Assembly: GCF_046349115.1 (NCBI RefSeq)
Contig: NZ_JAXMCX010000001.1
Span: 890,963 to 954,962, forward strand
Length of the DNA: 64,000 bases
Direction: 5' to 3'
Origin: Methylocystis sp.
Lineage (GTDB): Bacteria; Pseudomonadota; Alphaproteobacteria; Rhizobiales; Beijerinckiaceae
The position numbers were made by a program, and so were the translations under genes. Under the pieces are notes generated by a model. It did not search any database and was not told the DNA's origin. It saw only the letters and a list, made by a program, of their open reading frames with translations. Below, piece by piece: positions 8,429 to 36,586 of the stretch. How positions within the stretch are numbered: position 1 is the first letter of the stretch; every line of letters starts with the position of its first letter.

Positions 8429-9184
8429 ATGGTCCAACCAGCATCTTATCCGGGCATCTGCAATATATGCGGGACGAAGGGAGAATTTGTCCGTGGCGAA
8501 GGCCGCTCGATTCGCGAATCCTTCGCCTGTCCAGGGTGCCGCGCGGCCTTGAGGTATCGCGATCAGGCGGCGTTGATCGTGGACGAGTTCGCGCGCGGCC
8601 GCTCGATTTTCCTGCGCAACCTCGTCTCGTCGGGAATGCTCAATGAGGTCGCGATTTTCGAGGCGGCGCTGCGCGGACCGTTCGTCAACGCCTTCAAGGG
8701 CCTCAAGGGATATGTGAAGAGCTATTTCTGGCCCGACCGCCCGCTCGGGGAAATCAACGCCGACGGCGTGCGCAACGAGGATCTCACGCGCCTGACGCTG
8801 CCGGCGAACAGTTTCGATCTCGTCATCACCAGCGACGTCATGGAGCATCTCTACGATATTCGAAGCGCCTTTTCCGAGATCGCCCGGGTTCTCAAGCCCG
8901 GCGGCGTGCATATTTTTTCGATTCCCAATGACTGGCCGTTTCCCGAGCGCACTGAGCCGCGCGTCGCGCTCGTCGATGGCGTAGAGGAGCATATCAAGCC
9001 GGCGCGCCATCACGTCAGCGGCGACGGAACACCCTGTCTCGTTTACAATGACTACGGAGCGGACATCGTTGATATCATCGCGGAGTTTGGTTGCCATACG
9101 CAGGTCGTGCGGCGGCATTCGCCGCTTGACCCCTGCTATGTCAACGCAACCTTCCTCTCCCGGAAAACTCGGTCAGCGATTTGA
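8429..9184 (+). CDS. Class I SAM-dependent methyltransferase with N-terminal CxxC...CxxC (zinc-ribbon-like) motif
   Basis: 'CNIC...CPGC' and 'SFDLVITSDVMEH...EIARVLKPGG'. Confidence 0.8.
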   Translation: MVQPASYPGICNICGTKGEFVRGEGRSIRESFACPGCRAALRYRDQAALIVDEFARGRSIFLRNLVSSGMLNEVAIFEAALRGPFVNAFKGLKGYVKSYFWPDRPLGEINADGVRNEDLTRLTLPANSFDLVITSDVMEHLYDIRSAFSEIARVLKPGGVHIFSIPNDWPFPERTEPRVALVDGVEEHIKPARHHVSGDGTPCLVYNDYGADIVDIIAEFGCHTQVVRRHSPLDPCYVNATFLSRKTRSAI

Positions 9185-10974
9185 ACGGTGATGACGCCTT
9201 GACGGTCACGCTGACATGCCCGGCCTGCGGTTCGAATGAATTTCTCGCATTCAATGGACGTGAGAATGCGCGCTGCGGGCGCTGCGGCTCGATGGAGCGA
9301 ACGCGCCTTCTTTGGATGATGCTAGAGAAATTCGATCTGTTCCGAATGGGACAGCGGGTTCTGCACATTGCGCCTGAACTGGCGCTGACGAAGCGCTTCT
9401 CCGAGCTGAGCGGCGACCGATATCACGGCTGCGACATTGATCCTTCGCGATATGCGTCCAGAATTGCGCCGATCAGATCGATCGATCTTTGCGTTGATCT
9501 CGCAAAAATGCCGAGCCGCAGCTTCGATTTGATCATCCATACCCATGTCTTGGAGCACATCGCCTGCGACGTTGAGAATGCGCTACAGGAAATGGAGCGC
9601 ATTCTGGCGCCTGGCGGACATCATTTTTTCTCCGTGCCGATCCGGGGAGAAATTACGCGCGAGGACATATCGGAAGATCTGACGCCGCAACATCGCGCCC
9701 TGATGTTTGGCCAAGAAGATCATCTTCGCATTTTCGGCTCGAAAAGCTTGGCCGAGATGCTTTCCCGCGTCTGGGGCGATGCGGGGAACCCGCTCGTCAC
9801 GCCGAGCGAGATTTTTTCAGAAGAGAAGTTGCGCACCGCCGCGATCCCGCCCGCGGCATGGTCTGGCTATTCGAGCCATTCGATATTTCATCATGTTCGT
9901 CCCATCGTCGATCGTGAGCCGTCGAGTCCCGCGCCCAAGCCACGTCAGCGCGCGATGGAAAAACCCGCGGAGCCGGGTGCGTCGGGGCGAAAGCTGTTGC
10001 TGAATATCGGCATGCCTGGCGCGCATTGTGTTGCGATCCAGAAATGGACGTCCGAGCAACATGCCCAATTGTCCGCCAGCGGCGTGGCGTGCTGGCGTCA
10101 CCCCGATCGGGAAAAACTCATGTTCATGGGTTTCGCCAGCGACCGTCGTATCGCGTCTGGCGATCTGCCATTCGCCCGATCGTTGCGGCAGGGCGAGAGC
10201 CCGCCAACTCAAGAAGCCGCCCGTGAAGCTCTGGAGACATTCCTGGAAACGCTGGACGGTCATATTGGCTATGTCGACGCCGTGTCGTTGTGGTCCTTCA
10301 CCGCCGACGAAGTACGATTGCTGCAATCGCAGCTTTCGACCTGGGGCGTTGAGGCGCATGTGCTTTGCTTCGTTTATAAGCCCGACGCTTATTTTACCGC
10401 TTTGATTGAACGTCAGACCCGCACTGCGGGCCTCGCGCTATCCGATCTCGGCGTTGGCGTCGCTCGCAAGCTGCGTTTTTCCTATTCGCGTCTCACCGCA
10501 TGGGCGGAGGCGTTCCAAGATAGATTTTCGATCGGCGATGCGGCCGACCGGCCGACTTCGCGGATCAGCGACCTGCTGATTGGGATGGGCGCCACGCCGA
10601 TCGATCGTCCGGGGGAGGCGAGCGCCTCAAGCAAAGCCGCGAGCCTCACGTCGATCAAGGCGCTGCTCGCTCTGAACGAGACGCTGCGCAAAAATGGAGA
10701 AACCTCCCCGCGTTACGCGTCGTTGCTCACGTCGGCGCTCGCGAGCATGGAGGGCCCGAGGTTCGTGCCGCCCGAAACCCTGACTTTGCGGATGCATTCG
10801 TTGCTGACACAGGAAAACGCGCTGCTCTATGACCGTTTCGGCTTGTCTTCCAAAGAGGAGAACGCGTCCGAGCGAATGGACGACCATCGGTTCCTCTATT
10901 GGACGCCAGAGGAAGTCGGCGAGTTGCTTTCCGCGATCAATGCGATGCTGCTTGAGCGGGAAACAAAGAACTAA
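9181..10974 (+). CDS. Class I SAM methyltransferase (N-terminal, zinc-ribbon-like) fused to a degenerate sulfotransferase/P-loop-like C-terminal domain
   Basis: 'CPAC...CGRC', 'VLHIAPE' and 'FDLIIHTHVLEH...ERILAPGG'; the C-terminal half begins 'KLLLNIGMPGAH' (resemblance only). TTG start overlaps the previous stop. Confidence 0.7.
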   Translation: MNGDDALTVTLTCPACGSNEFLAFNGRENARCGRCGSMERTRLLWMMLEKFDLFRMGQRVLHIAPELALTKRFSELSGDRYHGCDIDPSRYASRIAPIRSIDLCVDLAKMPSRSFDLIIHTHVLEHIACDVENALQEMERILAPGGHHFFSVPIRGEITREDISEDLTPQHRALMFGQEDHLRIFGSKSLAEMLSRVWGDAGNPLVTPSEIFSEEKLRTAAIPPAAWSGYSSHSIFHHVRPIVDREPSSPAPKPRQRAMEKPAEPGASGRKLLLNIGMPGAHCVAIQKWTSEQHAQLSASGVACWRHPDREKLMFMGFASDRRIASGDLPFARSLRQGESPPTQEAAREALETFLETLDGHIGYVDAVSLWSFTADEVRLLQSQLSTWGVEAHVLCFVYKPDAYFTALIERQTRTAGLALSDLGVGVARKLRFSYSRLTAWAEAFQDRFSIGDAADRPTSRISDLLIGMGATPIDRPGEASASSKAASLTSIKALLALNETLRKNGETSPRYASLLTSALASMEGPRFVPPETLTLRMHSLLTQENALLYDRFGLSSKEENASERMDDHRFLYWTPEEVGELLSAINAMLLERETKN

Positions 10975-10977
10975 GCG

Positions 10978-11781
10978 TCAGCCGTCGACCGGACGAGTTT
11001 CAGGCGCTTTGCTCGGCAAAAGCACCCACGATTGTCGTTGGTTTCGAATTTCGAGGTTATGTTCCCTCGCGAAGTCCTTGACATGTTCCTGCATCCGCAT
11101 GACGCCCGTTTCGTCCGGCCATAGCCAATCATCGCCGCAGAGAACCGCCTCGGGAAACAATTCGTGTGCGATGTCCAGATCATCGCGTTTCTTGCCGGCG
11201 TCGATGTAGATCATCTGCGGCTTGATTTCGCGCGCATGGAGATATTCAAGCGCTTCAGGCGAACGTTGACGCACCGGAATGAACCGGCTCTTGTAAAGGC
11301 GCACATTATTGAGCGCGATCGCAAAATTGCCATGGCGACGCAGATTGGCGACGATCGCCGCAATCTGTTCGTCCGTGAGATGAAATACCGTGCGCATTTG
11401 CAGTGGATCGACGGCGAGACGCTCGATATAGGCGGCCCAGTTGCTATCCCAGGGATCGATTCCGATGACCGTCAACTTGTCGGACGCGCGAAGCCATTGG
11501 AGAGTCGAGCCGCAAAGGAAGCAGCCGACTTCCACCATCAGCTCGACCTTTCTTGCCTTTATCGTGTCGATAATCAATTCACGGCCGCCGCCCCATTCGC
11601 AGCCTGCCCGCCGACCGCCGTCGAGCGGGAGGAAAAACGGTTCGATCTCGCCATAAATGAACTCGGGCCAGGGATTGTCGCGCCGCAACGCGTTGAGACC
11701 AAACAGGATACGGGAGACGGGCGCGGCCGGCGCCGGGGCCGGGCACGCTTTTTCAGTTTCGACGCTCTTGTTGATGCTCAC
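10978..11781 (-). CDS. Class I SAM methyltransferase (Methyltransf_24-like)
   Basis: 'MVEVGCFLCGST', 'VIGIDPW', 'MIYIDAG' and 'LCGDDW'. Confidence 0.75.
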   Translation of the reverse strand: MSINKSVETEKACPAPAPAAPVSRILFGLNALRRDNPWPEFIYGEIEPFFLPLDGGRRAGCEWGGGRELIIDTIKARKVELMVEVGCFLCGSTLQWLRASDKLTVIGIDPWDSNWAAYIERLAVDPLQMRTVFHLTDEQIAAIVANLRRHGNFAIALNNVRLYKSRFIPVRQRSPEALEYLHAREIKPQMIYIDAGKKRDDLDIAHELFPEAVLCGDDWLWPDETGVMRMQEHVKDFAREHNLEIRNQRQSWVLLPSKAPETRPVDG

Positions 11782-12401
11782 GCGAAGTCACTCCAAACCG
11801 CGGAAAGTCGGGAGAGCAGCGATGTCGCCGTCACATTCGGCTTTCGACGCAGTGACACGAGATTGGTTTGTTGTTCGACGATATCGGCGACATCGAGCAG
11901 GCTGCGATAATTCTTGCGGATCGACAGGGCGTCGTAAAAGTCGTGCATGAGGATGGCTGTCGTCTCGGGGCAGACCAGAAACGACGCGAGCCCGCAGGCC
12001 GTGCGGAAGCGGCCGTCAATCAGCACGACTTCAGGGACCCAGTCCAACTTTTCCCAGACCGGCAGGAAGTAATTAGGCCAGAGTTCCAGGCGGCTGCGAT
12101 TGGCCGGCATGCCCCAATCCATCACGGGTCCGATGTCCACGCAATTGATCGTTAGACGACCGTTCGATTCCGCTTGGCGAATGACAGGGTTTTGCCGCAA
12201 TTTATCAACCCATGCCGGATCGCTTTCAACGCTTAAGCAGCGGCGCGCGCCGCGTTCAAGTGCGAAAATGGTGCTGCCGCCCGAACCGAATTCGAGATAA
12301 CTGACGCCGGAAACGAGGTGACGCGAGAGCATTTCGATTTCTTCAGGCGTCATTGCCACTTTGAAATCGGTGTCCGGCGTATTAGGAGCGTCGCTGTTCA
12401 T
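11778..12401 (-). CDS. Putative SAM-dependent methyltransferase-like protein
   Basis: 'YLEFGSGGST', 'SVESDPAW', 'VVLIDGRFR' and 'ILMHDF'; ATGA overlap with the downstream gene. Confidence 0.65.
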   Translation of the reverse strand: MNSDAPNTPDTDFKVAMTPEEIEMLSRHLVSGVSYLEFGSGGSTIFALERGARRCLSVESDPAWVDKLRQNPVIRQAESNGRLTINCVDIGPVMDWGMPANRSRLELWPNYFLPVWEKLDWVPEVVLIDGRFRTACGLASFLVCPETTAILMHDFYDALSIRKNYRSLLDVADIVEQQTNLVSLRRKPNVTATSLLSRLSAVWSDFA

Positions 12402-12407
12402 CGCGTG

Positions 12408-13568
12408 TTAGTTCTCTCGCTGACGGGGCTGAAGGCGGAGCGGCAGCGTTGCGAATTGACGGATTTCCTGCTGCTCCATCAGGCGCGCCGGCGCCTCGCC
12501 GGGGAGGATGGAATATCGCTGCAACAGAACGGTCAGAAAGCGCCGTGCTTGTCGTCGCGCGAACACGGCGCCGACGCATAAATGCGATCCGGCGCCGAAA
12601 GCCAAAGTGGGCGGGCCCCGGCGGGCGATATCGAATCTGTCGGGGTCGGGATACGCCTCGGGATCGTGATTGGCGCTTTCGATGACGACATGTACGAGAG
12701 CGCCTTCGGGAATCATTGTGTCGCCGAGCCTCAAACCGCCTTCGCCAACGACCCGCGAGCGCTGGCGAATGGAGCCGCAAAAGCGAAGCGCCTCCTCGAC
12801 GAAAGCGGATGCAACCTCGGGCTTGCCGCGAAGCATATCCTGCAAATCCGGCCGGTTCGCCAGAAGATGCAAGACATTCCCAAAAAAGGCGGCGATGGTT
12901 TCATTGGCGATCGCGATGAGGAAAAACACGGCCGATTCCCTCTGCCGCGCCGGCAATGACAGATCAATTTCGTCGAGCCGCGCCTTCCCGCCAAGAATCG
13001 GACAGCCGTGACTGGCCCAGCGCTCCGTGAGACGATCATGGACATAGAGCGACAGCGACTGTCGACGCTCATATTCACGAAGCGGCATCGCTGGCTGCCA
13101 GTCTTCGAGCACTTGTCTGCCCGCAAGACGCAGGTCGCGCAATTCGTCGCGAGAAAACCCCAACGACTCTCCGAGCAGCCCGTCGGGAAGGTCGTAGCAG
13201 AGTTCGGTCATGCCGTCGATTTCTCCGGCAGAGCGCTCGAATAGGCGCGACGCGGCGCGATCGATTCTCGCGTAGGAATATGCTTTCGACATTTCCCGGA
13301 TGATGACGTGCAGGAAGTCGCGCGACGGTCCGTGTTCGGGGGGATTTTGCAAGATCGGCAGGCTGCCGACGAGCGCGGCAAGATTCTCGAAAGATCCGCC
13401 CATCCGGTCGGAGACGCGCGCGGCCAGCGTGCTGGCTCCGGCGGCGACCGACACGTTGGGCGCCCGCAGCGCGCCGATCGCATCCTCGTAACGCGTTATG
13501 ATCCACGCGTTGTCCGAAGGCCTGCAATAGGGCTTGCCCACCGGTTGATAGTCGATCGAAACTGGCAT
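12408..13568 (-). CDS. Cytochrome P450
   Basis: Heme motif 'AFGAGSHLCVG', ExxR 'EEALR', meander 'PDRFDI' and I-helix 'IANET'; start trimmed to the ATG at 13568. Confidence 0.93.
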   Translation of the reverse strand: MPVSIDYQPVGKPYCRPSDNAWIITRYEDAIGALRAPNVSVAAGASTLAARVSDRMGGSFENLAALVGSLPILQNPPEHGPSRDFLHVIIREMSKAYSYARIDRAASRLFERSAGEIDGMTELCYDLPDGLLGESLGFSRDELRDLRLAGRQVLEDWQPAMPLREYERRQSLSLYVHDRLTERWASHGCPILGGKARLDEIDLSLPARQRESAVFFLIAIANETIAAFFGNVLHLLANRPDLQDMLRGKPEVASAFVEEALRFCGSIRQRSRVVGEGGLRLGDTMIPEGALVHVVIESANHDPEAYPDPDRFDIARRGPPTLAFGAGSHLCVGAVFARRQARRFLTVLLQRYSILPGEAPARLMEQQEIRQFATLPLRLQPRQREN

Positions 13569-13640
13569 GCGGGCGCTTGCTCTTTGCGAGGCTCGGTTGG
13601 AGAATACGGGCGAGCATATATTCTTTCGAACCGTACACCA

Positions 13641-15329
13641 ATGACGCCATCCTCCGCCACACGGAATTCCGCGACGGCGCGCATCCTTCGCCATGCGTCA
13701 CGCGCGCCTGATCGCGAGGCGATCATCTTCCTCGACCGAGGCGAAACGGTATCGACGCGCTTGACTTATGAAAGTCTTGTTTCGCAGGTGGGCGGCATGG
13801 CCCGTCGCTTGGCGGCCGAAGGGTTTTCCGGCAAGGCGATCGTGATTGCGCTGCCGGCAGGAATCGCTTTCGTGAGGCTTTTCCTTGCCTGTCTCTGGGC
13901 GCGCGTCATCGTGATACCGGCGCCGTACCCTAGCAATGCGCGACTTCTGAATCGGCTTCATGCCTTGGTCGCCGACTCGCGGCCTGTCGCGCTCGTCACG
14001 GACGCGAATGGCGTCGCGAAAATTCCGTCCCTGCCGCAGACGGGCGCGCCTTTGAGGATATTGGACATTTCATCTCTCGCGGATGAAAATCTCTCGCCGC
14101 TCGAGCCGCTCGCTGGAGCAGGCGACGCGCCGGCGATTATCCAATATACATCGGGGTCTACAAGCGAACCGCGCGGCGCGGTCATCACCCATGACAATCT
14201 TTTCGCCAATCAATGCATGATCCAGTCCGCCTTCGGCCACGACGAGCGTTGCGTGGGCGCCAATTGGCTTCCGCATTTTCACGACATGGGCCTTCTCGGC
14301 GTCATCCTTCAGCCTTTATTTGTCGGCGGATCGACCGTCCTCATGGACCCGCTTGCCTTCATCCAAAAGCCGATTCGCTGGCTTCGCGCGATCGACCGAT
14401 TTCACGCGACGACGGCGGGCGGACCATGCTTCGCCTACGACCTCTGCGCGCGACATTGCGCGCCAGAGGACATCGAGAAGCTGGATCTATCCTCTTGGCG
14501 GGTCGCCTTCTGCGGCGCGGAGCCGATACGCCGCGCGACCCTCGACGCCTTTGCGGCGACGTGCGCCTCAGCGAGCTTCGACCCTCGCGCATTGACGCCC
14601 TGTTATGGCCTCGCCGAAGCGACGCTCATTGTTTCTTCGGCGAACCCCGGCAATGGCGCGCGAGAACTTCCGGCGTCGGGCCTGGGATCGAAGGGGACGA
14701 CGACTTTGGCGGTCGGTTGCGGTTATCCGGCGCCGGAATGCAAAATTCTGGTGCGCGCCGCCGACGGCGCGCCATTGCCCGACGGGGAGGCGGGGGAAAT
14801 CTGGGTCGCCGGGCCGCACGTCTCCCCCGGCGTCTGGAACGGAGAAGAGGGAGGCGTGAATCCCTTCAACGACTCCTTCGTCGATGAGGCGGGAGATCGT
14901 TACATCGCCACCGGCGATCTTGGGGCGCTGGTGAACGGCGAACTCGTGCCGCTGGATCGGCTGAAGGACATCATTATCGTCTATGGTCAGAAGCTCCATT
15001 CGGCGGATATTGAAGCAACCTTGCTGTCGCATCGCTTGTCGGCCGAACTGCTTGCGGCCTGCGCCTTTTCGATAGAGACGGCGAAGGGCGATCAGCTGGT
15101 CGTTGTTTGCGAGATGGATCGCAAGCGATTCCGGGAGGGAGCGGCACTTGAACTCGCCGCGCAACTTAAGAAAATCATAGCGGAGTCTTTTGGCGTCTTG
15201 CCGCAGTTGGCGATTGTTCCGTATGGTGCGTTGCCTCGCACGACCAGCGGAAAAATTCAGCGTTCCGTGAGCAAGTCCGAATGGCTCGCCGGCAGGATCG
15301 CGGAGGCGTCGAGGCTCACCAACGCGTGA
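13641..15329 (+). CDS. Fatty acyl-AMP ligase (FAAL)
   Basis: 'IQYTSGSTSEPRG', 'NWLPHFHDMGL', 'FCGAEPI', 'PCYGLAEATL', 'TGDLG' and 'LPRTTSGKIQR'. Confidence 0.92.
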   Translation: MTPSSATRNSATARILRHASRAPDREAIIFLDRGETVSTRLTYESLVSQVGGMARRLAAEGFSGKAIVIALPAGIAFVRLFLACLWARVIVIPAPYPSNARLLNRLHALVADSRPVALVTDANGVAKIPSLPQTGAPLRILDISSLADENLSPLEPLAGAGDAPAIIQYTSGSTSEPRGAVITHDNLFANQCMIQSAFGHDERCVGANWLPHFHDMGLLGVILQPLFVGGSTVLMDPLAFIQKPIRWLRAIDRFHATTAGGPCFAYDLCARHCAPEDIEKLDLSSWRVAFCGAEPIRRATLDAFAATCASASFDPRALTPCYGLAEATLIVSSANPGNGARELPASGLGSKGTTTLAVGCGYPAPECKILVRAADGAPLPDGEAGEIWVAGPHVSPGVWNGEEGGVNPFNDSFVDEAGDRYIATGDLGALVNGELVPLDRLKDIIIVYGQKLHSADIEATLLSHRLSAELLAACAFSIETAKGDQLVVVCEMDRKRFREGAALELAAQLKKIIAESFGVLPQLAIVPYGALPRTTSGKIQRSVSKSEWLAGRIAEASRLTNA

Positions 15330-15352
15330 TTTTGGAAGAATGGAGGGGAGAC

Positions 15353-15625
15353 ATGCAGGATCCGGTCGTGACGCAAACGGATCGTGAGCGCATTGTTGAT
15401 TGGATGGTGCGGCATATCGGCTCGGTTCTCGAAATGCCGAAAGACGACTTCCCGATCGAAGAGCGCTTCGACGCTTATGGGCTCGACTCCATCGAGGCGG
15501 TGATCATGGCGGGACTTATGGAGGAGGAATTCGGCGTCCCGATCGACCCGATGACCTTGTTCCAAAATCCGAGCGTCGCAAAATTCGCGGATTTCCTCGC
15601 GCCGGTCCTCTCCGAACGGCGCTGA
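15353..15625 (+). CDS. Acyl carrier protein
   Basis: 90 aa and acidic; phosphopantetheine site 'YGLDSI'; RBS GGAGGGGAG; directly after the FAAL. Confidence 0.92.
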   Translation: MQDPVVTQTDRERIVDWMVRHIGSVLEMPKDDFPIEERFDAYGLDSIEAVIMAGLMEEEFGVPIDPMTLFQNPSVAKFADFLAPVLSERR

Positions 15626-15629
15626 TGGC

Positions 15630-16493: not shown

Positions 16494-16568
16494 GCGTCAA
16501 AGGCGGCGCCCGCCAATCGTCCTCTTCTTTCTCGGCGAACACGTTTGCTTCGTCGAGCCGGTGGGCCT

Positions 16569-19928: not shown

Positions 19929-20135
19929 TCCGGCCGGCGAGGGCTTTGATCGTTAATCTCCTGCGACAATTTTTTTGTTAGTGGCCTCTTCAACGTCGGT
20001 CAATGGGCGAAAACTTAAGCGGCCCATGCGACTAGAGCCGCCTTATGGAAATAAGTCGTTGGCTGGAATTGAGAAAATTTCAGTTGGACTTGCCTGACCT
20101 CGAGGCGCGGACTGGAAATTTTGTTGCGAAAAAAT

Positions 20136-26264: not shown

Positions 26265-26415
26265 ATCGGTACGCGAGGAGGCCCAATCCATCGCATTGAG
26301 GGCATGATGCAGGATCTGGAGAGACTTATGCCAGACCTCGTCGAAGCGACAGTTTGCAAGATTCGTGATTTTTGTGCGTTTAGTGGCGATCTTGTCCGCG
26401 GAAAGCAGGTGCGTG

Positions 26416-29400: not shown

Positions 29401-30093
29401 AGCGACGAGGAGCGCGTCGAAGTCGAAAAGGCATTGCCGGGCGCGGTGGCCAGCGCCGTGCCGATGCTTGGCTATTTTCCTTCAGAACTCGGCGTAGCGC
29501 ACGCCAATATAGCGCAATTCGACGCTCGGGATTTTGATCAGCTGTTGTTCGTCGGCGGCTCTCATCCGCCAAACGTCGACGCGCTGCTCTGGTTCGCTAA
29601 GGAAGTCATGCCCCTGATCATCGCCGAGCGTCCGCGGACCAAGCTCAATATCGTCGGTTCGTCGCGCGTCCCTGAAATTGCCGCGCTGGAGTCGGAGGAG
29701 ATCATCATCAAGGGGCGCATCAGCGATGAAGAGCTTGATAGACTTTATGCGACTGCAGGCGTCGCGATCATTCCGCTTCGTTTCGGCGGCGGGGTAAAGG
29801 GTAAAACCATCGAGGCGCTTTTCCACGCCATACCGCTTGTCGCGACGTCAGTTGGCATGCAAGGGCTCTATCCGCAACAGCCGATCGCCTATGTCGCCGA
29901 TGAGGCGGAGAGTTTCGCCAAAGCGGTGATTTCAGCCCAGACAGATCGCCAGACCGCAAAATTGCATGCAGAGCGGGGCGCTTCCTTTATTGAAGAACAT
30001 TATTCGCTCGACGCGATGCGGCGCGCTTTTTTGCCTTTTATTCCAAAACTGGGCGCGCGGGAGAAGACCGACGCGGCGGCGACGGCGCCGTAA
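26416..30093 (+). CDS. Giant multidomain glycosyltransferase: coiled coil, 7 tandem repeats, GT2 domain and GT4-like domain
   Basis: GT2 motifs 'VSIIMPVYN', 'VVMLNNDT' and 'YCEDSD'; GT-B motifs 'VLVVDHYIPQWDRDAGS', 'LLFVGGSHPPNVDA' and 'PLRFGGGVKGKTIEA'. Confidence 0.92.
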   Translation: MRLADRILRWASRLQDEDEAPRQRDDEAPRAKTSGEPARSRKRAETEVSRLTKGYAEEKIRGLGGREEALNPRRALTAQESEALKALENLACVEQQLLTANSQLEKYESLFSQQRDRLRLFERQLGIVNAKHAVDLQLVKAARATRNALSQAPLGLVMHRGRLRAIFAAPAPSRPLDRADRKEIERSYLFDPQWYLDQNPDVARHGIDPMAHYVRNGFIEDRDPHPLFNAAWYRAIYRRELDGVSPLIHFLRNGGGHKRAAHPLFDSAFYLRQNKEVAARNLDPLKHFIEVGEAERRDPHPLIWMDRLAVQPGLEGVDRPLRAYISDSRFYLASVHPLFDGDFYLHENKDVRKHDLCPLLHYCAVGWREGRQPHRAFAGDWYLEQNLDVLSAQINPLLHFVTLGAWEDRSPHPLFDTRFYLRQNLDARTGKHDVLTHYVTVGAEERRETTEKIKVDDMKEIVPTAYWNRFDPISAFTFFGETRISVPAQVDIGGDQLDCAWPPCPEVAYWLPQQLRDYIIERYGEEEIPFYLYLMSIIDRYGDRPEAFAESNELVTLRSRLRRCCSRARRVKQPDVSIIMPVYNNLAFTLTSALSLLENKSRYAFEVIVADDRSSDLTQDVFSSAGPPIVYVRQEKNLGFLGNCNAAAQRANGRYVVMLNNDTITLPGWLDELIAPMEKDARVGLTGSKLINADGTLQEAGGIFWNDGSAWNFGRNSDARLPEFNYLKEVDYISGASIALPTKLWNELEGFDPIYSPAYCEDSDIAFRVRDKGLRTIYAPRSALVHHEGKSHGRDTSGGVKAYQISNQKKLLDRWRSVLEKDHFPNGENVFLARDRSRNRPHVLVVDHYIPQWDRDAGSRTVYHFLRMFIDAGFQVSFWPDNLNEDREYCAMLQQAGVEVIYSAAYVDRFDAFMAANGSYIDYALVNRPHIAPKYYDSIRANSRGVILYYGHDIHYKRLESERLTSEDPRLPQEIEQYRRLELENWRKTDVVLYPSDEERVEVEKALPGAVASAVPMLGYFPSELGVAHANIAQFDARDFDQLLFVGGSHPPNVDALLWFAKEVMPLIIAERPRTKLNIVGSSRVPEIAALESEEIIIKGRISDEELDRLYATAGVAIIPLRFGGGVKGKTIEALFHAIPLVATSVGMQGLYPQQPIAYVADEAESFAKAVISAQTDRQTAKLHAERGASFIEEHYSLDAMRRAFLPFIPKLGAREKTDAAATAP
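26980..27762 (+). repeat. Seven tandem ~37-38-aa protein repeats, consensus about LFDxxwYLxqNxDVxxxxxdPLxHyxxxGxxExRxPHP
   Basis: Units read from the translation begin LFDPQWYLDQNPDV, LFNAAWYRAIY, LFDSAFYLRQNKEV, LIWMDRL (degenerate), LFDGDFYLHENKDV, AFAGDWYLEQNLDV and LFDTRFYLRQNLDA. Confidence 0.9.
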
Positions 30094-30142
30094 CGACCCA
30101 GAAGCTGGTGGGGGATGGGGAGGTAAATTAGGGATCGGACCG

Positions 30143-31198
30143 ATGGGTAGAGGCGACGGAAAAAACGGGTTGATCCGCGCACGAGCGCCGCTTCGCCTTG
30201 GTCTCGCCGGCGGCGGCACGGATTTGTCGCCCTATTGTCAGCTCCACGGCGGCGCGGTTCTCAACGTCACCATCGACCGGCACGCATATGCTTTCATCTC
30301 ATCGCGCAGCGACGGTAAAACCAGCTTCGCCGCGCTGGACATGGGCGTGGAAGAAATCTTCGATGTCGACGACTCTTGTTCGGCGTCCACCTCGCTGCTG
30401 TTGCATCAGGGCGTCTACCGAAGAATCTGCAAGGATTACCTCGGCGACGAAAAGCCGGCGTTGTCGATCCAGACGACGGTCGACGCCCCAGCCGGGTCTG
30501 GTCTCGGTTCCTCGTCCGCGCTCATGGTGGCGCTCGTCGAAGCCTTTCGCGCGCGCTACGAATTGCCGCTCGGCCGCTATGAAATTGCGCATCTGGCATG
30601 GGAGATCGAGCGCATCGATCTTGGTCTTGCCGGCGGTCGGCAAGATCAGTATGCGGCGGCCTTCGGCGGGGTAAATTTCGTCGAATTTCTATCCAACGAT
30701 CGCGTCATTGTGAATCCTCTGCGGCTGGTTCCCGGCGCAATGGAGGAAATCGAGTCATCCATCGTGATCTGCTTTACCGGCCAATCGCGCAGCTCTCACG
30801 ACATTATCCTTCAGCAGACGAGCGGAGTCGTCTCCGCCGACGCCAACGCCATGGAAGCCATGCATCAGCTCAAAGCGGACGCGCTCGAGATGAAATTGGC
30901 TTTCGTTCACGGCGACATGCCCCGAATGGCGGAAGTCATGCGTCGCTCCTGGATCGCCAAGCGCGCCACAGCCAAGGGCGTTTCCACCACCGCGATTGAC
31001 AATTTCCATGCTTTGGCTGTTGAGAATGGCGCTCTGGCGGGCAAGATTTCCGGGGCCGGCGGCGGCGGTTTCATGATGTTTTTCGTACGCCCGGAGGATC
31101 GCCAGAAATTGGTCGTCGCCCTGCGTGCGGCCGGCGGCGACGCGAGCGCCGTGGCGTTCACTCATACGGGGAGCGTGACGTGGAAGGCGACAACTTGA
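30143..31198 (+). CDS. hddA: D-glycero-alpha-D-manno-heptose-7-phosphate kinase (GHMP family)
   Basis: 'RAPLRLGLAGGGTD', 'PAGSGLGSSS', 'GRQDQYAAAFGG' and 'KISGAGGGGF'; lies directly before gmhA. Confidence 0.88.
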   Translation: MGRGDGKNGLIRARAPLRLGLAGGGTDLSPYCQLHGGAVLNVTIDRHAYAFISSRSDGKTSFAALDMGVEEIFDVDDSCSASTSLLLHQGVYRRICKDYLGDEKPALSIQTTVDAPAGSGLGSSSALMVALVEAFRARYELPLGRYEIAHLAWEIERIDLGLAGGRQDQYAAAFGGVNFVEFLSNDRVIVNPLRLVPGAMEEIESSIVICFTGQSRSSHDIILQQTSGVVSADANAMEAMHQLKADALEMKLAFVHGDMPRMAEVMRRSWIAKRATAKGVSTTAIDNFHALAVENGALAGKISGAGGGGFMMFFVRPEDRQKLVVALRAAGGDASAVAFTHTGSVTWKATT

Positions 31199-31800
31199 GC
31201 CGCATCGAGGGTTATTTAGCCCGTTCCGTCGCAGCGCTCGACGCGGCGGCTCAGGACGAGAAATTTAAGCGGGCGTTGCTCGATATCTCGGACTGCATTG
31301 TCGCGAGTCTCAAGAACGGCGGCAAGGCGCTGTTCGCGGGCAATGGCGGCAGCGCGGGGGACGCGCAGCACATCGCCGGCGAATTTGTCTCGCGGCTCAA
31401 TTACGACCGCGCGCCGCTCGCCGGATTGGCGCTTTCGACCGACACGTCGGTGCTGACCTCGATCGGGAACGATTATGGTTATGCCGACGTATTTTCTCGT
31501 CAGGTCAAGGGGCTCGGGCGAAAGGGCGACGTCTTTGTCGCCATCACGACCTCCGGCAATTCTAAGAATATTCTCGATGCGGTCGAGGTCGCGCGCAGCA
31601 TCGGCGTCACTACCGTCGGTTTCACCGGAATGAGCGGCGGCAAGCTCTCCGGAGCCGTCGATCTCTGCCTGCACGCGCCGAGCGACTGGACGCCGCTGAT
31701 TCAGCAGATCCATATTGTCGCGGCTCATATCATCTGCGGTCTGGTGGAAGACGCGATGTTTCCCGAAGCGGCGGAAAAATATCACGGCGCGGGCGGGTGA
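31180..31800 (+). CDS. gmhA: Sedoheptulose-7-phosphate isomerase
   Basis: 'GNGGSAGDAQHIAGEF', 'IGNDYGY', 'TTSGNSKN' and 'IQQIH'. Confidence 0.95.
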   Translation: MEGDNLSRIEGYLARSVAALDAAAQDEKFKRALLDISDCIVASLKNGGKALFAGNGGSAGDAQHIAGEFVSRLNYDRAPLAGLALSTDTSVLTSIGNDYGYADVFSRQVKGLGRKGDVFVAITTSGNSKNILDAVEVARSIGVTTVGFTGMSGGKLSGAVDLCLHAPSDWTPLIQQIHIVAAHIICGLVEDAMFPEAAEKYHGAGG

Positions 31801-33074
31801 TCCGACAGGCGGTCATACTCTGTGGCGGGCAGGGGACGCGGCTCGGCGCGCTGACGGCAAGCACGCCGAAGCCGCTGCTGCCGGTCGCCGGCGCGCCTTT
31901 CCTCGACGTGCTGGTGGAGGAAGTCGGTCGCTGCGGCTTCAACCGCGTGCTGCTGCTTGCCGGCCATCTCTCGCAGGAGATCGAAGCCTTTGTGCGGTCA
32001 TCGGCCGCCGCGAAGCGGCGTAGCGTCGAGATCGACCTTTCCGTCGAGCCGCTACGCGCCGGCACGGGCGGGGCGGTGCGCTTTGCCGAAGCTAAGCTCG
32101 ACGATGTCTTTCTGCTGATGAACGGCGACTCCTGGTTCGACGTGAATTTGCGGAGCCTCACGGCGTTTGCGCAGGCCCGCGGCGAAAGCGCGATGGTTCT
32201 GGCGCTGCGCGCGATGCCTGATGTTTCACGCTATGGCGCGGTGACGCTTGCCGGCGACAAGATCACGGGCTTTCGGGAAAAAGCGCAGGGTCTCGGCGCG
32301 GGGCTGGTCAACGGCGGCGTTTATGTGTGCCGCAAGGCCGCCTTGTTCGAAGCGATGGAGGCTTTGGCGCCGAACCGGGAGATGGCGCTGTCGCTCGAAA
32401 CGGATGTCATGCCGGCGCTGTCCGCGCGCGGCGCGCTCGGCGGCCTGGCGTGCGACGGCTATTTCCTCGATATCGGCCTGCCCGAGTCCTATGCGGCGGC
32501 GCAAACCGAAATTCCGCGCCATCTGCGCCGGCCCGCCGCTTTTTTCGATCGCGACGGGGTCTTGAACGTGGACCTGCATCATGTCGGGACGGTCGATCGC
32601 TTTCGCTGGGTCGATGGCGCGATCGACGCGGTGCGCGCCTGTAATGATCGCGGCTTCCTGGTGTTCGTCGTCACCAATCAGGCGGGCGTGGCGAAGGGTC
32701 TCTATGAAGAGCGCGATGTCGATCGCCTGCATGAATTCATGCAGGAAGAGCTGGCGCAGGCGGGCGGCCATGTCGACGATTTCCGATACTGCCCCTACCA
32801 TATCGAGGCGGCGCGGCCGGAATATCGCTCGGATTCGCCGTGGCGGAAGCCGGCGCCCGGCATGCTGCTCGATCTCCTGGCGCATTGGCCGGTCGATGTC
32901 GAAGGGAGCTTCCTGATCGGCGACAAGGACAGCGACCTCGCCGCCGCGCGCGCCGCGGGCGTTCCGGGCTATCTTTTCGAGGGGGGAGATTTACGCGCTC
33001 GGCTTGACGCCGTGCCGCAATTTGCGGGTTCGGCGCGTGGCGAGCCGGTTTCCCCCATCAGTGAAAAAGGTTAG
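31797..33074 (+). CDS. hddC: Fused heptose-1-phosphate nucleotidyltransferase (HddC-like) and heptose-1,7-bisphosphate phosphatase (GmhB, HAD-IIIA)
   Basis: N-terminal 'ILCGGQGTRL...PKPLL', 'GTGGA' and 'FLDIGLPESY'; C-terminal 'FFDRDGVLN', 'VTNQAG', 'CPYH', 'RKPAPGM' and 'IGDKDSD'. Confidence 0.9.
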   Translation: MIRQAVILCGGQGTRLGALTASTPKPLLPVAGAPFLDVLVEEVGRCGFNRVLLLAGHLSQEIEAFVRSSAAAKRRSVEIDLSVEPLRAGTGGAVRFAEAKLDDVFLLMNGDSWFDVNLRSLTAFAQARGESAMVLALRAMPDVSRYGAVTLAGDKITGFREKAQGLGAGLVNGGVYVCRKAALFEAMEALAPNREMALSLETDVMPALSARGALGGLACDGYFLDIGLPESYAAAQTEIPRHLRRPAAFFDRDGVLNVDLHHVGTVDRFRWVDGAIDAVRACNDRGFLVFVVTNQAGVAKGLYEERDVDRLHEFMQEELAQAGGHVDDFRYCPYHIEAARPEYRSDSPWRKPAPGMLLDLLAHWPVDVEGSFLIGDKDSDLAAARAAGVPGYLFEGGDLRARLDAVPQFAGSARGEPVSPISEKG

Positions 33075-33152
33075 AAAGACTGGCGATTAGCGCGCTGGCG
33101 GCGTCAACGCTCATCGTTCGAGCGGCCCCCTTGATCAACGAAAGCTGCGAAT

Positions 33153-33899
33153 ATGTCCGACTACCTTCCTGTCCTCGGCGGCAAGAAAAACGAATTGAGG
33201 GGCGGCCGTAATGTTTACGACGGCTATCAACGTGGTTGGGGCCTCGAGTTCGGCGACCTGAAAGCGCGCGTCAGCGAGGACCCCGACTATCGCTACGCGG
33301 CGGAGATCGCCAAGGCGCGCTCCGTGCTGCTGCTTGAGCGCATGATGAATCTTTTTCTGTTGTGCAAATTCTTCCTGCCGCGATTGCCCCATGGGCATAT
33401 CGTCGAATATGGCTCGTTCCGGGGCGGCTCGGCGATGTTCATGGCGGCGTTGGCGCAGCGATTCCTGCCAGGCGCGCAGGTCTATGCGCTCGATACATTC
33501 GAGGGCATGCCGGCGACGGATCGCGCGATTGATGCGCACTCCGCCGGCGATTTCGCCAACACGAATATGGAAGAGATTCGTCAGGCGGCGGACAAGCTAG
33601 GCTTGAACAATCTCCACCTCGTCAAAGGCCTGTTTCAGGACACGGCGCCGACGCTTCTCCCGCAGATCGGTCCGATCGCTCTCGCGCATATCGACTGCGA
33701 CATCTATAGCGCCGTGAAATATTCCTACGAAGTCTCAAAACCGCATATGCTCCCGATGGGCTATTATGTCTTCGACGACGCCACAACGTCGAGTTGCATC
33801 GGCGCGACAGAGGCGGTCGAGGCCTTCGTGATTCAGCGCGACGGGCTGTTATCAGAACAAATCTATCCGCATTTTGTCTTCCGCCATCCGCCGGCTTGA
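33153..33899 (+). CDS. TylF/MycF/NovP-family sugar O-methyltransferase
   Basis: 'IVEYGSFRGGS', 'DTFEGMP', 'VKGLFQDT', 'AHIDCDIY' and 'VFDD'. Confidence 0.88.
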   Translation: MSDYLPVLGGKKNELRGGRNVYDGYQRGWGLEFGDLKARVSEDPDYRYAAEIAKARSVLLLERMMNLFLLCKFFLPRLPHGHIVEYGSFRGGSAMFMAALAQRFLPGAQVYALDTFEGMPATDRAIDAHSAGDFANTNMEEIRQAADKLGLNNLHLVKGLFQDTAPTLLPQIGPIALAHIDCDIYSAVKYSYEVSKPHMLPMGYYVFDDATTSSCIGATEAVEAFVIQRDGLLSEQIYPHFVFRHPPA

Positions 33900-34013
33900 C
33901 CCGACGTCAAATGCCGCAACTGCCGAAAATTGCGACTGACCCCAATCACCAAGCGAAAGTAGAGCAGCAACTTCGGCAATTAGCCGAAGGCTTCGATATA
34001 CTCCGACCGCGAA

Positions 34014-34694
34014 TCAGGCCGCCTTCTCTCCCTCCGAAGGACCGTATCCGAAGATTTCAAAATCCTTCCTATACCGGTTGCTAATCTTTTCGATAGAAGA
34101 CTCAGATAACTGAATCGTATCTTCGGTCGTCTTGTTACTATGAATTGAAAGAGGAGCCAGATTTAGGCCGAGTCGGCAATTAAGTTCTTTTACATCAGCG
34201 CTTATTGCCTCGACCTTTCCAATATAGTTTGCTAAATGTACACCGCTTTCGTCATAGAGCCAGCGCCATTGTGGCTGAAATATTCTTTCAATCCCTGGGT
34301 TTTCCCAATATGGACTGCCTATCATATCATTGACATTATCGAATTGGCGAAACACATTAGCGTGCTCAACAAGCGCGCTACCTGGCAGCCACTTTTTGAG
34401 AAATTTAAAAGTAGAAATCGTCCTATCAAATGGGTTTCTAACGAAAGAGAACCTAAAATATTGATTGAAAACGCTCATACCAAGCGCTGTTTTGATTTCG
34501 AGCGCCGTTGCGTGTTTTGTTATTTTAAATCGTTTCATGTAGAATGCTTGGACAGCCTCACCCATAGCCGACCCGCCGATTTCAACATCGGCGATAGTTG
34601 AACACTGCTGGCTATAATATTGGGATAAAGATGTACCAGCAGCCTTGGGGATGTGAATAAATATAAACCGGTGGGTATTGTTGATGATTGCCAC
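34014..34694 (-). CDS. Sulfotransferase family 2 protein (low GC)
   Basis: 5'-PSB motif 'FIHIPKAAGTS' and 3'-PB motif 'VRNPFDRTIS'; GTG start with RBS TAGGAGGAG. Confidence 0.88.
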   Translation of the reverse strand: MAIINNTHRFIFIHIPKAAGTSLSQYYSQQCSTIADVEIGGSAMGEAVQAFYMKRFKITKHATALEIKTALGMSVFNQYFRFSFVRNPFDRTISTFKFLKKWLPGSALVEHANVFRQFDNVNDMIGSPYWENPGIERIFQPQWRWLYDESGVHLANYIGKVEAISADVKELNCRLGLNLAPLSIHSNKTTEDTIQLSESSIEKISNRYRKDFEIFGYGPSEGEKAA

Positions 34695-34762
34695 AGGCGC
34701 ACTCCTCCTATTTCCTCTATATACCACGGACCCATGTCGTGGTGCGCGCTAGCCAACTTTGG

Positions 34763-35641
34763 TTATTCCATCATGCAGCCGTATGCTTGGCCATTGCGCC
34801 CGCCGCCGACAACCCAGCCCCATCCGCGGTCTTTAGCAACAAGTCCCCACCGCCCGTAGTTAACCACCTGCCCATCCGGCTCACCATTGGGCCCAGTACT
34901 TCCGGATGATCCGAGTGTCCAGCCATGCGAAGTATCCCACCAAGCTTCGGACCGTTTGATCGCCGGCCGTTCTTCTGCGCCCTTTCCATGCAAGCATGGG
35001 CTATGCGAAGGTCGGTCCAATGACACGGCATGCTGCCAAAAGAATCGCCTTCCGACCGTTACTCCGTTGGGCCTAATAATCTCTCCCCAGACCCGAAGAC
35101 TATAGGGAGCCGACATCACGTCGTACAGTGCGTACGGTTGACCATCGGTACCACAACTTCCGCCACTTGTAATATCGAACCAACCTTCATTATTTACCTT
35201 GATTTCTGCCCTAGTGGTTCGAATTGCGAAGCGGTGACTCGTACTGTTATCGAGAGCTTCATTTCTGTAGGCATTTAGCCAGACAAAATTCGCCCCCCCA
35301 GCGCAATTACGCTTAATGGCCCACTCTTCGATCCTCTCTGGTTTGTTCGGGCTCCGAGGGTCCTCCCATATGACGTCCACAGTATCTGTGCCTGTCGGTT
35401 CAGTTCTCCATTTCGACATCGGACGTCCATCTTTGAGACTGAAAATAACCCCGCTCTCGGGCTTTCTAAGCGGGTAGTATTCGTCTAGCGTTTGTCCCGT
35501 AGGTTGCAAAAAATCGAAAGGTCTGATTCCACCGCTTTGCGCGGCCGCTGGGCAGATCACAACAATGCAAACCGCCAAGAGGCTGACTACCGTAGAAGGG
35601 CAGACATCCAAAATTGATTCGTAATTTTTCGTTGACGGCAT
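34763..35641 (-). CDS. Secreted hypothetical protein (Trp/Gly-rich, lower GC)
   Basis: Long ORF; hydrophobic stretch ending 'PAAAQ'; no family recognised. Confidence 0.6.
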   Translation of the reverse strand: MPSTKNYESILDVCPSTVVSLLAVCIVVICPAAAQSGGIRPFDFLQPTGQTLDEYYPLRKPESGVIFSLKDGRPMSKWRTEPTGTDTVDVIWEDPRSPNKPERIEEWAIKRNCAGGANFVWLNAYRNEALDNSTSHRFAIRTTRAEIKVNNEGWFDITSGGSCGTDGQPYALYDVMSAPYSLRVWGEIIRPNGVTVGRRFFWQHAVSLDRPSHSPCLHGKGAEERPAIKRSEAWWDTSHGWTLGSSGSTGPNGEPDGQVVNYGRWGLVAKDRGWGWVVGGGRNGQAYGCMME

Positions 35642-35743
35642 TTCCGAGCGACCCGTTTCTTGCGGTACCTTTGGATCGTCGCGATGATCATTCCCGTAAG
35701 TTGGGGCGAGCCGGCACAGACCCATTGCGAAGTCAAAGATAGT

Positions 35744-36586
35744 CTACTTTCTTTGCGCCAGAAAAAGGAGAATACCGCATATCTCCGCGCCCAAAATCCC
35801 GTGCCGGCGTGACGATATGAATCTGATACGCGGGTCGGGAAAACCTGAGTTGCGCGCCTGGTCGAGAATGTCCCAGGCTGGAATGTTGAAGACAAGGCTT
35901 CCGCCCGAAGGATCGATTGGATTGCCGTGATATTCTGGCTCCGTTAGATGAACAATTTGACCGTCCCTTAGTTCGGCTTTCCTGACCGTTCTTGCCGACG
36001 CATACGCCATCGGGAACGTTCCAAAAAACAAGCCGCCCGGCGCGAGAATTCGATTTGCCTCAAGCAACGCGGCTTCGACGATCGGCACGTGTTCGAGCAC
36101 TTCGTTTGTAATATAGGCGTCGAAACTGCCGTCAGCGAAAGTGGTCGCCATCACGTCTTCGTGGCGAATCTCCGGATGCTTGGCGCGGTCTTCCGGCGTC
36201 GGCAAATATTCGCTGCCCTGATAAGCCACGAATCTGCGCATGACATTCGCGAAAGGCGACACCCATTCGGAAGCGTAAACGCTCAGTCGCGGGCCTTTGA
36301 CGAGCATTTCCTCGACGAGCGCCAGGCACACGGCGCGCAGCCGCGAATTCAGGCCTTCGGCGATCAATCCCTCGCGGTAATTGGCGCCGCCGATATCGAT
36401 TTTATCCGGAGGAATATAGCCCCAAAGGGGATCGATCAGACCGCCGCGCCGGATGTCGGCGACAATATTCGCGATATGCTGACTGTCGATCGCCCAGGCA
36501 TTGTCTCGCCGCCAGGCCATCCACTCGCCGAAAGAGCGAAACTCTAACGAAACTTCCATTGGGATCGTCGACGGAGCAGCATTCAT
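35744..36586 (-). CDS. Class I SAM-dependent methyltransferase
   Basis: 'FADGSFDAYITNEVLEHVP' and 'RILAPGG'. Confidence 0.8.
   Translation of the reverse strand: MNAAPSTIPMEVSLEFRSFGEWMAWRRDNAWAIDSQHIANIVADIRRGGLIDPLWGYIPPDKIDIGGANYREGLIAEGLNSRLRAVCLALVEEMLVKGPRLSVYASEWVSPFANVMRRFVAYQGSEYLPTPEDRAKHPEIRHEDVMATTFADGSFDAYITNEVLEHVPIVEAALLEANRILAPGGLFFGTFPMAYASARTVRKAELRDGQIVHLTEPEYHGNPIDPSGGSLVFNIPAWDILDQARNSGFPDPRIRFISSRRHGILGAEICGILLFLAQRK

Follow-up and report, generated by a model that had tools for sequence, protein, structure and literature searches.

The stretch of DNA analysed here, 64,000 nucleotides of Methylocystis sp. (assembly GCF_046349115.1, contig NZ_JAXMCX010000001.1, positions 890,963 to 954,962; hereafter the window, in whose numbering coordinates are given unless another contig is named), carries from about 8.3 to 37.0 kb a strain-specific insert of some 29 kb, and the evidence supports a horizontally acquired, mosaic insertion for glycan and acyl tailoring. 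On balance we think it rather probable that this island consists of three cassettes with separate histories and not of one inherited unit, that all of its enzymes are soluble, and that the first cassette, Unit A, joins acyl chemistry to glycan assembly by the mechanism proposed below. An earlier, sequence-only reading had treated 8429-36586 as one 28-kb island making a single surface product; the horizontally acquired mosaic tailoring region stands, whereas the single inherited unit does not, Units A, B and C being found apart in the closest relatives (contigs L119, L100 and L022).

Three cassettes with separate histories

Unit A (8375..25151; 14 genes, 16.8 kb) is followed by Unit B, a plus-strand operon at 25782..33899 in a unit reaching to about 33997 (unk160, GT1242, hddA, gmhA, hddC-gmhB and a TylF methyltransferase), and by Unit C (33998..36601, minus strand), a nested low-GC patch with a sulfotransferase, an exported protein and the methyltransferase MT_C. 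Window positions 8375-25151 align by blastn to the metagenome contig L119 as a single block of 16,818 nt at 87.2% identity, and no other part of the island aligns there. The genes flanking this block in L119 have counterparts, at 82% protein identity, on other contigs of this genome (C4 at 270 kb and C3 at 175 kb), and L119 is therefore taken to come from a related strain in which the cassette occupies another chromosomal position. A second contig, L100, has the same 14 genes with order and orientation kept (54-83% protein identity) and core genes on either side. Neither in L119 and L100 nor in at least ten further contigs do heptose and sulfotransferase genes accompany Unit A; heptose genes occur in no Unit-A locus.

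The reverse is also seen. Contig L022, from a Methylocystis metagenome-assembled genome, matches 28279-33904 at 87.5% nucleotide identity, skips 33998-36601 and resumes its alignment at 36602-36769, bridging 33997 to 36602 by about 0.9 kb of other DNA, so that Unit C is absent. Unit B stands without Unit A in L022 and about 50 genomes, and none of 80 Unit-B-type loci carries homologues of the fatty acyl-AMP ligase (FAAL), PhyH, P450 or TPR629 proteins of Unit A. By its own terms the sequence-only reading would have fallen if the genes occurred elsewhere as unrelated fragments with no co-occurrence; in part it stands, the left 16.8 kb being a conserved set in other genomes, but the whole 28 kb is not co-inherited. 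Because the three units occur apart, a single methylated, pyruvylated, sulfated, acylated and heptose-containing product is possible but unproven.

Insertion site and composition

The insert lies between DUF202, the last gene of a degP-hflC-hflK-DUF202 left flank, and the 3' end of tRNA-Ser(GCU) (37017..37106, minus strand; ARAGORN), which faces the island, opens the right flank and marks an insertion hot spot. Corresponding sites in the same genus were found through hflK, and the DNA upstream of hflK was then compared. In three relatives with HflK 86-91% identical (G013, G016 and G004) only about 120 bp separate DUF202 from an identical tRNA-Ser, that is, the site is empty, and in G013 and G016 the genes of the window's right flank follow it directly. 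Four other relatives hold unrelated inserts at the same place (G001, 5.5 kb; G003, 3.3 kb; G009, 3.5 kb; G011, 10.2 kb), and it is this varied cargo that identifies the site as a hot spot. Pfam scans found no integrase domain in any island open reading frame (ORF), and no repeat of the tRNA 3' end (att) was found; for these two reasons a classical integrative element was ruled out. A plus-strand ORF at 7742-8233, in the segment 7592-8374 between DUF202 and Unit A, has a homologue in the 5.5-kb insert of G001 (73% nucleotide identity over 315 bp) and may be a remnant common to successive insertions at the tRNA-Ser hot spot.

The island has a GC content of 0.590 against a genome mean of 0.628, placing it at the 1.4th percentile of equal-length windows; Unit C is at 0.517 (0.5th percentile), and the sulfotransferase gene itself at 0.43. 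The mosaic composition noted earlier holds, its four G+C line counts (28, 43, 22 and 45) being exact, as do the at least seven transcription blocks: there are six strand switches, and the blocks come to seven when the 700-bp gap before 25782 is taken as a boundary. We also considered conservation of the island within the genus and rejected it. Only G001 has an orthologue of GT1242, as a lone gene (locus L012, G001:C2:171-177 kb; 59% identity, 1663 aa, with an unk160 partner at 60%), which sits among housekeeping genes and adjoins a phage-type integrase, with no heptose genes beside it. None of the left-hand island genes was found in same-genus species with a concatenated 2689-aa query, for which the seven best candidates per genome were scored, a coarse measure of synteny.

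Unit A is a conserved gene set

The distribution of Unit A was assessed by a homologue search with its two-GT4 polymerase, neighbourhood look-ups and a metagenome scan. Among 66 metagenome loci with polymerase relatives, 12 that have adequate flanks carry at least three of FAAL, acyl carrier protein (ACP), GT2-like glycosyltransferase (GT), PhyH, P450, pyruvyl transferase and TPR-hydrolase, and several of the 12 also have MT_A, MT_B597 and unk267. The contigs concerned, at least 12, range in G+C from 0.41 to 0.73 and have a shuffled gene order, within which a sub-block of TPR-pyruvyl transferase-ACP-GT2-PhyH-FAAL-PhyH recurs. Accessory proteins of Unit A keep 52-74% identity in loci whose polymerases share only 34-39%; such is the case for L138, with MT_A at 68%, unk267 at 69% and GT2s at 62% identity versus 37% for the polymerase. 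In L119 the 14 genes are all intact and under purifying selection (dN/dS 0.10-0.26), and the flanking genes that were annotated are catabolic or housekeeping ones with no relation to the set. Unit A is a conserved, functional and uncharacterised gene set without an exporter. The literature yielded nothing on the gene combination of Unit A or of the island, which agrees with the earlier statement that the combination matches no described pathway, nor anything on Methylocystis O-antigen or heptose. Minimal sister clusters were also seen (L103/L104, L105 and L102), one of them in Methylosinus trichosporium, comprising a two-GT4 polymerase, two to three MT_A-type methyltransferases and a BNR_4 or beta-helix protein.

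Gene content of Unit A

The long ORFs between 8.4 and 36.6 kb were searched against Pfam, NCBIfam and the PDB, and every enzyme class named in the sequence-only reading is present. Domain matches and motifs identify the P450, FAAL with ACP, two Fe(II)/2-oxoglutarate (Fe/2OG) dioxygenases, pyruvyl transferase and sulfotransferase; there are three GTs with five modules (one GT2; two GT4; GT2 plus GT4), and the alpha/beta hydrolase is the C-terminal domain of a TPR protein (23189-25078), as seen in its AlphaFold2 (AF2) fold. Five of six S-adenosylmethionine (SAM) methyltransferases are likewise supported, four by Pfam (8429-9184, 9181-10974, 33153-33899 and 35744-36586) and one by the PDB entry 3cvo (11778-12401), the sixth (10978-11781) being only probable. 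In all, Unit A holds four methyltransferases, including the probable one, a P450, the FAAL-ACP pair, a GT2-like enzyme, a two-GT4 polymerase with a beta-sandwich partner, two PhyH proteins, a pyruvyl transferase and a TPR-alpha/beta-hydrolase.

MT_A (8429..9184, plus; Pfam Methyltransf_11, E 4e-13), a SAM methyltransferase, bears a CxxC..CxxC motif near its N-terminus and has a dN/dS of 0.10. In other loci no protein accompanies the two-GT4 polymerase more regularly, its identity there ranging from 40 to 94%. MT_B597 (9181..10974, plus) joins a zinc ribbon and a SAM methyltransferase (Pfam Methyltransf_23/11, with a weak Zn_Ribbon match) to a C-terminal domain of 350 aa (window 9931-10974) that is conserved and has no family match; the protein is kept in seven Unit-A loci. 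The corresponding protein of L102 has DUF4915 where this domain sits. On the minus strand, unk267 (10978..11781) is a probable metal-dependent O-methyltransferase, judging by its ExGxxxxG and IDAGK motifs; its profile matches catechol O-methyltransferase at E 0.03, and it has no Pfam or NCBIfam match. It serves as a marker of Unit A: it is 57-90% identical in six other contigs, is absent from 400 other alphaproteobacterial species, and gave no match among the seven best candidates scored in each of 24 same-genus species. Its neighbour unk207 (11778..12401, minus) is methyltransferase-like, with a LEFGSGGST motif and a match to 3cvo, a 'methyltransferase-like protein', at E 4.9e-22.

The cytochrome P450 (12408..13694, minus; Pfam p450, E 1e-19) probably starts near 13571, retains an intact haem motif (FGAGSHLCVG), and is 84% identical in L119, with a dN/dS of 0.26. 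Its top NCBIfam match is a haem-less 'glycosyltransferase activator'; this assignment was rejected because the cysteine of FxxGxxxCxG is present. The FAAL (13641..15329, plus) finds its best NCBIfam matches among FAAL subfamilies (E 1e-91), and its nearest PDB chains are all FAALs (7r7f, 3kxw, 3pbk, FadD23, FadD32 and FadD28; E 1e-103 to 1e-49), against E 1e-23 for CoA ligases. The ACP gene (15353..15625, plus) lies 24 bp downstream and encodes a DSIE phosphopantetheine motif; its orthologues in L100 and L101 are PF00550 PP-binding proteins. The GT2-like enzyme, GT2s (15630..16493, plus; Pfam Glycos_transf_2, E 1e-7), travels with the ACP, being 49-90% identical in 11 Unit-A loci and usually adjoining the ACP gene.

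The polymerase-type enzyme GT4x2_888 (16569..19235, minus; 888 aa) is a soluble protein with two GT4 modules (two Pfam Glyco_trans_1_4 stretches); it has no transmembrane (TM) segment, and a PDB sequence search with it returned nothing. Directly upstream is unk230 (19236..19928, minus), an all-beta partner that ends in a DxRxLG motif; its homologue has the same position in 10 loci, and its AF2 model (pLDDT 76) weakly resembles jelly-roll CBM35/CBM22 modules, two of our structure models resting on shallow alignments. We rejected unk230 and the unk160 of Unit B as clear paralogues, since BLASTP shows nothing shared between them except the C-terminal motif. Two tandem PhyH-type Fe/2OG dioxygenases follow (20136..21041 and 20995..21870, both minus; Pfam PhyH, E 6e-29 and 7e-24); both carry HQD and are therefore assigned to the hydroxylase type, and PhyH genes flank the FAAL gene in other loci. 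The next gene (21982..23247, minus) encodes a member of the polysaccharide pyruvyl transferase family (PS_pyruv_trans, PF04230) at 87.4 bits against a cut-off of 25.3, the match spanning positions 1-277 of the 280 in the profile; the activity is predicted from this family match, and the gene is present in 14 of 15 Unit-A loci.

The last protein of the cassette, TPR629 (23189..25078, plus), has TPR repeats by Pfam and PDB profile and a C-terminal segment of 230 aa whose AF2 model (pLDDT 87) gives 706 PDB fold matches at E<=1e-3, alpha/beta hydrolases. The best TM-score, 0.63, is to 6yuo, the O-acetyltransferase CsaC of the Neisseria meningitidis serogroup A capsule, and esterases, lipases and MenH match nearly as well. 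Seven homologues of 35-90% identity all keep a GxSxG serine (the serine of GASMGG, residue 103 of the segment), an aspartate and a histidine. TPR629 thus resembles CsaC, an enzyme that O-acylates a polysaccharide, in its alpha/beta-hydrolase fold and Ser-Asp-His triad; it differs in having only 15% sequence identity, a fused TPR region of about 350 aa and a coupling to ACP in place of acetyl-CoA. On the strength of this modelled fold we regard it as a candidate acyl-transfer or release enzyme.

Unit B is a widespread heptose-glycan cassette

Unit B is a cassette type of wide occurrence. The genes hddA, gmhA and hddC, sometimes joined by gmhB, stand immediately downstream of the GT gene in about 50 of the 80 best genome loci, a spread that extends from Alphaproteobacteria to Firmicutes and Myxococcota. 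The GT here, GT1242 (26365..30093, plus; 1242 aa), has a coiled-coil-like N-terminus, a repeat array, and GT2 (residues 594-706) and GT4 (1059-1191) modules by Pfam; it has no TM helices, and a PDB sequence search gave generic GT2 matches only. Its family is very large: 571 of 600 genome pattern matches were confirmed as relatives of the GT2-GT4 half. The genes for HddA, GmhA and an HddC-GmhB fusion follow (29966..33074, plus), with NCBIfam E-values of 2e-100 for HddA and 3e-55 for GmhA and both HddC and GmhB halves found in one protein. By these family matches all four activities of a GDP-heptose route are predicted (GmhA isomerase, HddA kinase, GmhB phosphatase and HddC guanylyltransferase), so that the heptose pathway of the sequence-only reading is complete. 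The bit scores against their cut-offs (HddA 337/600, GmhA 187/276, HddC 112/300, GmhB 136/178) support these assignments at family level, below the equivalog level. Against L022 the heptose genes have dN/dS of 0.06-0.17.

GDP-heptose pathways are known from capsules and S-layer glycans (PMC10680097; PMC4691232); Unit B resembles them in encoding all four activities, here directly after the polymerase and in an order kept in about 50 genomes, and departs from them in the fusion of HddC with GmhB and in its sub-equivalog scores. The operon ends in a TylF-type O-methyltransferase (33153..33899, plus; Pfam TylF, E 4e-20), whose gene also accompanies that of the GT in L022 (90% identity) and G026 (54%). 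No dehydratase, epimerase or reductase accompanies the heptose genes, and the heptose would therefore be unmodified apart from probable O-methylation. A Wzt with a C-terminal carbohydrate-binding domain is present in 47 of 80 Unit-B-type loci and a Wzm in 31, from which it follows that the cassette normally belongs to an ABC-transporter-dependent heptose-glycan pathway; the exporter genes are missing from the locus described here.

Elsewhere in this genome (G000), a second low-GC3 region at C2:69397-76136, outside the window, encodes a giant GT of 1312 aa (one GT4 and two GT2 modules), a protein of 480 aa and a neighbouring methyltransferase. The first two have the ~37-aa repeat of GT1242, and the region may be another glycan island.

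Unit C

Three minus-strand genes make up the sulfotransferase patch: a sulfotransferase (34014-34727; Pfam Sulfotransfer_2), an exported protein of 320 aa and no detectable family (34763-35725) with the only N-terminal hydrophobic, signal-like segment of the island, and the methyltransferase MT_C (35744-36586; Pfam Methyltransf_11).

Proposed mechanism and export

In the mechanism that we propose, the two-GT4 enzyme and its beta-sandwich partner unk230 would polymerise a glycan from common sugar nucleotides, which the three supported and one probable methyltransferase of Unit A would O-methylate and on which the pyruvyl transferase would place pyruvate ketals. In parallel, FAAL would adenylate a fatty or other carboxylic acid and load it onto the dedicated ACP; oxidation of the tethered chain would then fall to the P450 and the two HxD-type PhyH hydroxylases. 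The GT2-like enzyme and the Ser-Asp-His hydrolase of the TPR protein might then transfer the acyl group to the glycan, in the manner of CsaC, or use it as aglycone or primer and release it, and Unit C would add sulfate and one further methyl group. Systems that tailor lipids through FAAL and ACP include those of mycobacteria with FadD and PKS and cyanobacterial FAAL/ACP/halogenase clusters (PMC7923214); like them, Unit A has a stand-alone FAAL beside a dedicated ACP and oxidative enzymes that possibly act on the tethered chain, but it lacks a polyketide synthase (PKS), a non-ribosomal peptide synthetase and a condensation enzyme, and its partners are glycosyltransferases, methyltransferases and a pyruvyl transferase.

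Apart from the single signal-like segment in Unit C, no TM helices were found in the island proteins. As none of them is polytopic, we infer that assembly is cytoplasmic, at the cytoplasmic face of the membrane, with export unlinked. The island contains no exporter, flippase, initiating transferase or ligase, and in the genome no WaaL-family ligase was detected, so that the 'surface' location given to the product by the sequence-only reading is unproven. Export would have to pass through machinery elsewhere, for which there are candidates, among them two Wzm/Wzt systems. On contig C1 at 418 kb, Wzm and a short Wzt lie beside lptG and two small GT4 genes; on C3 (248518-257881, outside the window, near 255 kb), a short Wzt is part of a rhamnan-type cluster with an RgpF/WsaF fusion of 835 aa and a GT2 of 704 aa, and this system might export glycans whose synthesis is encoded at other loci. 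One OPX protein, a further candidate, is encoded on C6, and three Bac_transf initiating transferases lie outside the island.

Among the nearest described systems are the machines that assemble O-polysaccharides for ABC transporters with multi-module GTs and coiled-coil terminators (WbdA/WbdD of Escherichia coli O9a; Klebsiella O3, O4 and O7; PMC11231755). The island shares with such O-polysaccharide and capsule systems its soluble multi-module GTs (two GT4, or GT2 plus GT4), N-termini that look coiled-coil-like, and methyltransferases, which might serve here to cap the chain or to decorate it; in other bacteria both giant GTs have relatives that adjoin Wzm/Wzt or KpsMT with OPX. For a coiled-coil ruler with a chain terminator the signs are heptad-like N-termini seen by eye, a weak Pfam match of coiled-coil type (ATG16, E 0.3) and the presence of methyltransferases as candidate terminators. 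Unlike the prototypes, the island has no wzm/wzt, initiating transferase or adaptor GT, the genome has no detectable WaaL, and Unit A adds a FAAL-ACP-dioxygenase-P450 branch.

Alternative explanations

Several considerations weigh against the reading of three separate cassettes with a Unit A of the proposed mechanism. Every catalytic step in it is assigned by family membership. An O-antigen of lipopolysaccharide (LPS) is an unlikely fate: although the genome is 99.99% complete, PF04932 (the Wzy_C/WaaL family) finds no match there, and the single PF00953 match is, being the only copy, probably MraY, which leaves no WecA; this methanotroph may lack ligated O-antigen altogether, and the candidate fates are a capsule or exopolysaccharide, a glycolipid or an intracellular glycan. 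Unit A may not follow the classical exported-glycan route at all, since an ABC exporter lies near none of 12 Unit-A-type loci and near 13 of 28 other loci of the same polymerase family, a contrast (Fisher p 0.0035, not corrected for phylogeny) for which flanks were scored within 10 kb. Finally, relatives of the two-GT4 enzyme and of the GT2-GT4 giant stand side by side in four unrelated loci (L106, L131, L162 and L148), which suggests that the units may cooperate more than their separate inheritance implies.

The exporter contrast also speaks for an alternative that we regard as possible though rather unlikely. The product of Unit A would be non-exported or lipid-primed: either a cytoplasmic polymethylated, acylated polysaccharide, a proteobacterial counterpart of the methylglucose lipopolysaccharides (MGLP) and methylmannose polysaccharides (MMP) of mycobacteria, or a glycolipid with hydroxy fatty acids, put together on the ACP or released from it in the manner of rhamnolipids and sophorolipids; in either case the hydrolase domain would off-load the product. 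The lack of a polyprenyl-phosphate transferase or any membrane protein in the cluster, the tight TPR-to-PhyH sub-block and the better conservation of the accessory genes than of the polymerase all argue in its favour. Mycobacterial polymethylated polysaccharides (PMPS) are made without an exporter (PMC9883506; PMC2674218), and Unit A resembles their synthesis in logic, with a GT4-type polymerase, several O-methyltransferases, no exporter and an acylated methylated glycan as predicted product; the minimal sister clusters, which have a glycoside-hydrolase-like gene as MGLP/MMP clusters do, parallel the four-gene MMP layout (PMC9883506). Moreover, a PS_pyruv_trans gene of Collimonas is needed for a glycosylated lipopeptide, showing that pyruvyl transferase family enzymes also act on small glycolipids (PMC8313283). 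On the other hand, MGLP/MMP synthesis belongs to a different phylum and uses no FAAL-ACP, P450, Fe/2OG enzyme or pyruvyl transferase, and no sequence similarity to PMPS enzymes was detected; none was returned by PDB searches with MT_A, unk207, unk267 and the polymerase, the PMPS content of the PDB copy being unverified. The same polymerase family occupies classical exporter loci elsewhere, the hydrolase domain is structurally most similar to a capsule O-acyltransferase, and the absence of exporters extends over the 10 kb that were scored. A bolder form, in which Unit A represents a new class of glycoconjugate pathway, we hold to be distinctly doubtful. In it a fatty acid loaded on the ACP would be hydroxylated there by the two Fe/2OG enzymes and the P450 and would act as primer or aglycone for a heavily O-methylated, pyruvylated glycan, built by the GT2 enzyme and the two-GT4 polymerase and released by the TPR-tethered hydrolase, with no undecaprenyl carrier or dedicated exporter.

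It is unlikely, in our view, that all 23 genes form one pathway to a single methylated, pyruvylated, sulfated and acylated heptose surface polymer, made by the two giant GTs in a multiprotein polymerase complex like those of ABC-transporter-dependent O-polysaccharide systems. The four loci with adjacent giant GTs speak for it, L106 with sulfotransferases and KpsMT/OPX in addition, as do Rosetta-stone fusions among the 240 homologues of GT4x2_888, some of which are joined to methyltransferase, TPR or sulfotransferase domains, and the presence, upstream of either giant GT, of a small partner protein with DxRxLG at its C-terminus. The separation of Units A, B and C in their closest relatives, the lack of heptose genes in every Unit-A locus and the lack of Unit A accessory homologues in all 80 Unit-B-type loci argue for separate cassettes instead. 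L106 itself, from the marine Granulosicoccus antarcticus (CP018632, at 1.73 Mb), combines both giant GT types with two sulfotransferases, GT61 genes and a KpsMT/OPX exporter; this locus for a sulfated polysaccharide could be an experimentally tractable comparator.

That the cluster instead serves cytoplasmic protein glycosylation, on S-layer, flagellar or other proteins, with the TPR region recognising the substrate as in OGT or FlmG, is very improbable. Such a role would suit the missing exporter, ligase and initiating transferase, the TPR profile matches the TPR regions of OGT, and GDP-heptose is used for S-layer glycans in Aneurinibacillus; but the TPR region is fused to a hydrolase and not to a GT, multi-module GTs of polymerase type are untypical of protein O-glycosylation, and genes for a flagellin, an S-layer protein or an oligosaccharyltransferase are absent from the island, its surroundings and the 12 related loci. 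Decaying, horizontally acquired cargo without current function, as low GC, a hot-spot location and the lack of a regulator in the island might suggest, is scarcely credible given that all island frames are intact, dN/dS is 0.06-0.26 over 18 island genes against relatives at about 87% nucleotide identity, and the start/stop overlaps typical of translationally coupled operons are preserved.

Significance

The surface and storage glycans of methanotrophs are almost unstudied, and this locus shows their diversification by the stacking of ready-made cassettes at a tRNA hot spot. For annotation, the combination of a GT2-GT4 enzyme with hddA-gmhA-hddC recurs across phyla and can be called as a heptose-glycan polymerase cassette. 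Unit A is the more valuable part: it is rare and yet present in at least 12 contigs of very different GC, and it would link acyl chemistry on a carrier protein (FAAL, ACP, P450 and two dioxygenases) with the polymerisation, methylation and pyruvylation of a glycan. If the acyl group passes from ACP to a polysaccharide or primes one, this would be a new route to lipoglycans or biosurfactant-like molecules, and unk267, the DxRxLG beta-sandwich partner and the TPR-hydrolase, families so far without a function, would gain one; synthesis of an ACP-primed glycolipid or polymethylated polysaccharide, if true, would be the first such system outside the Actinobacteria.

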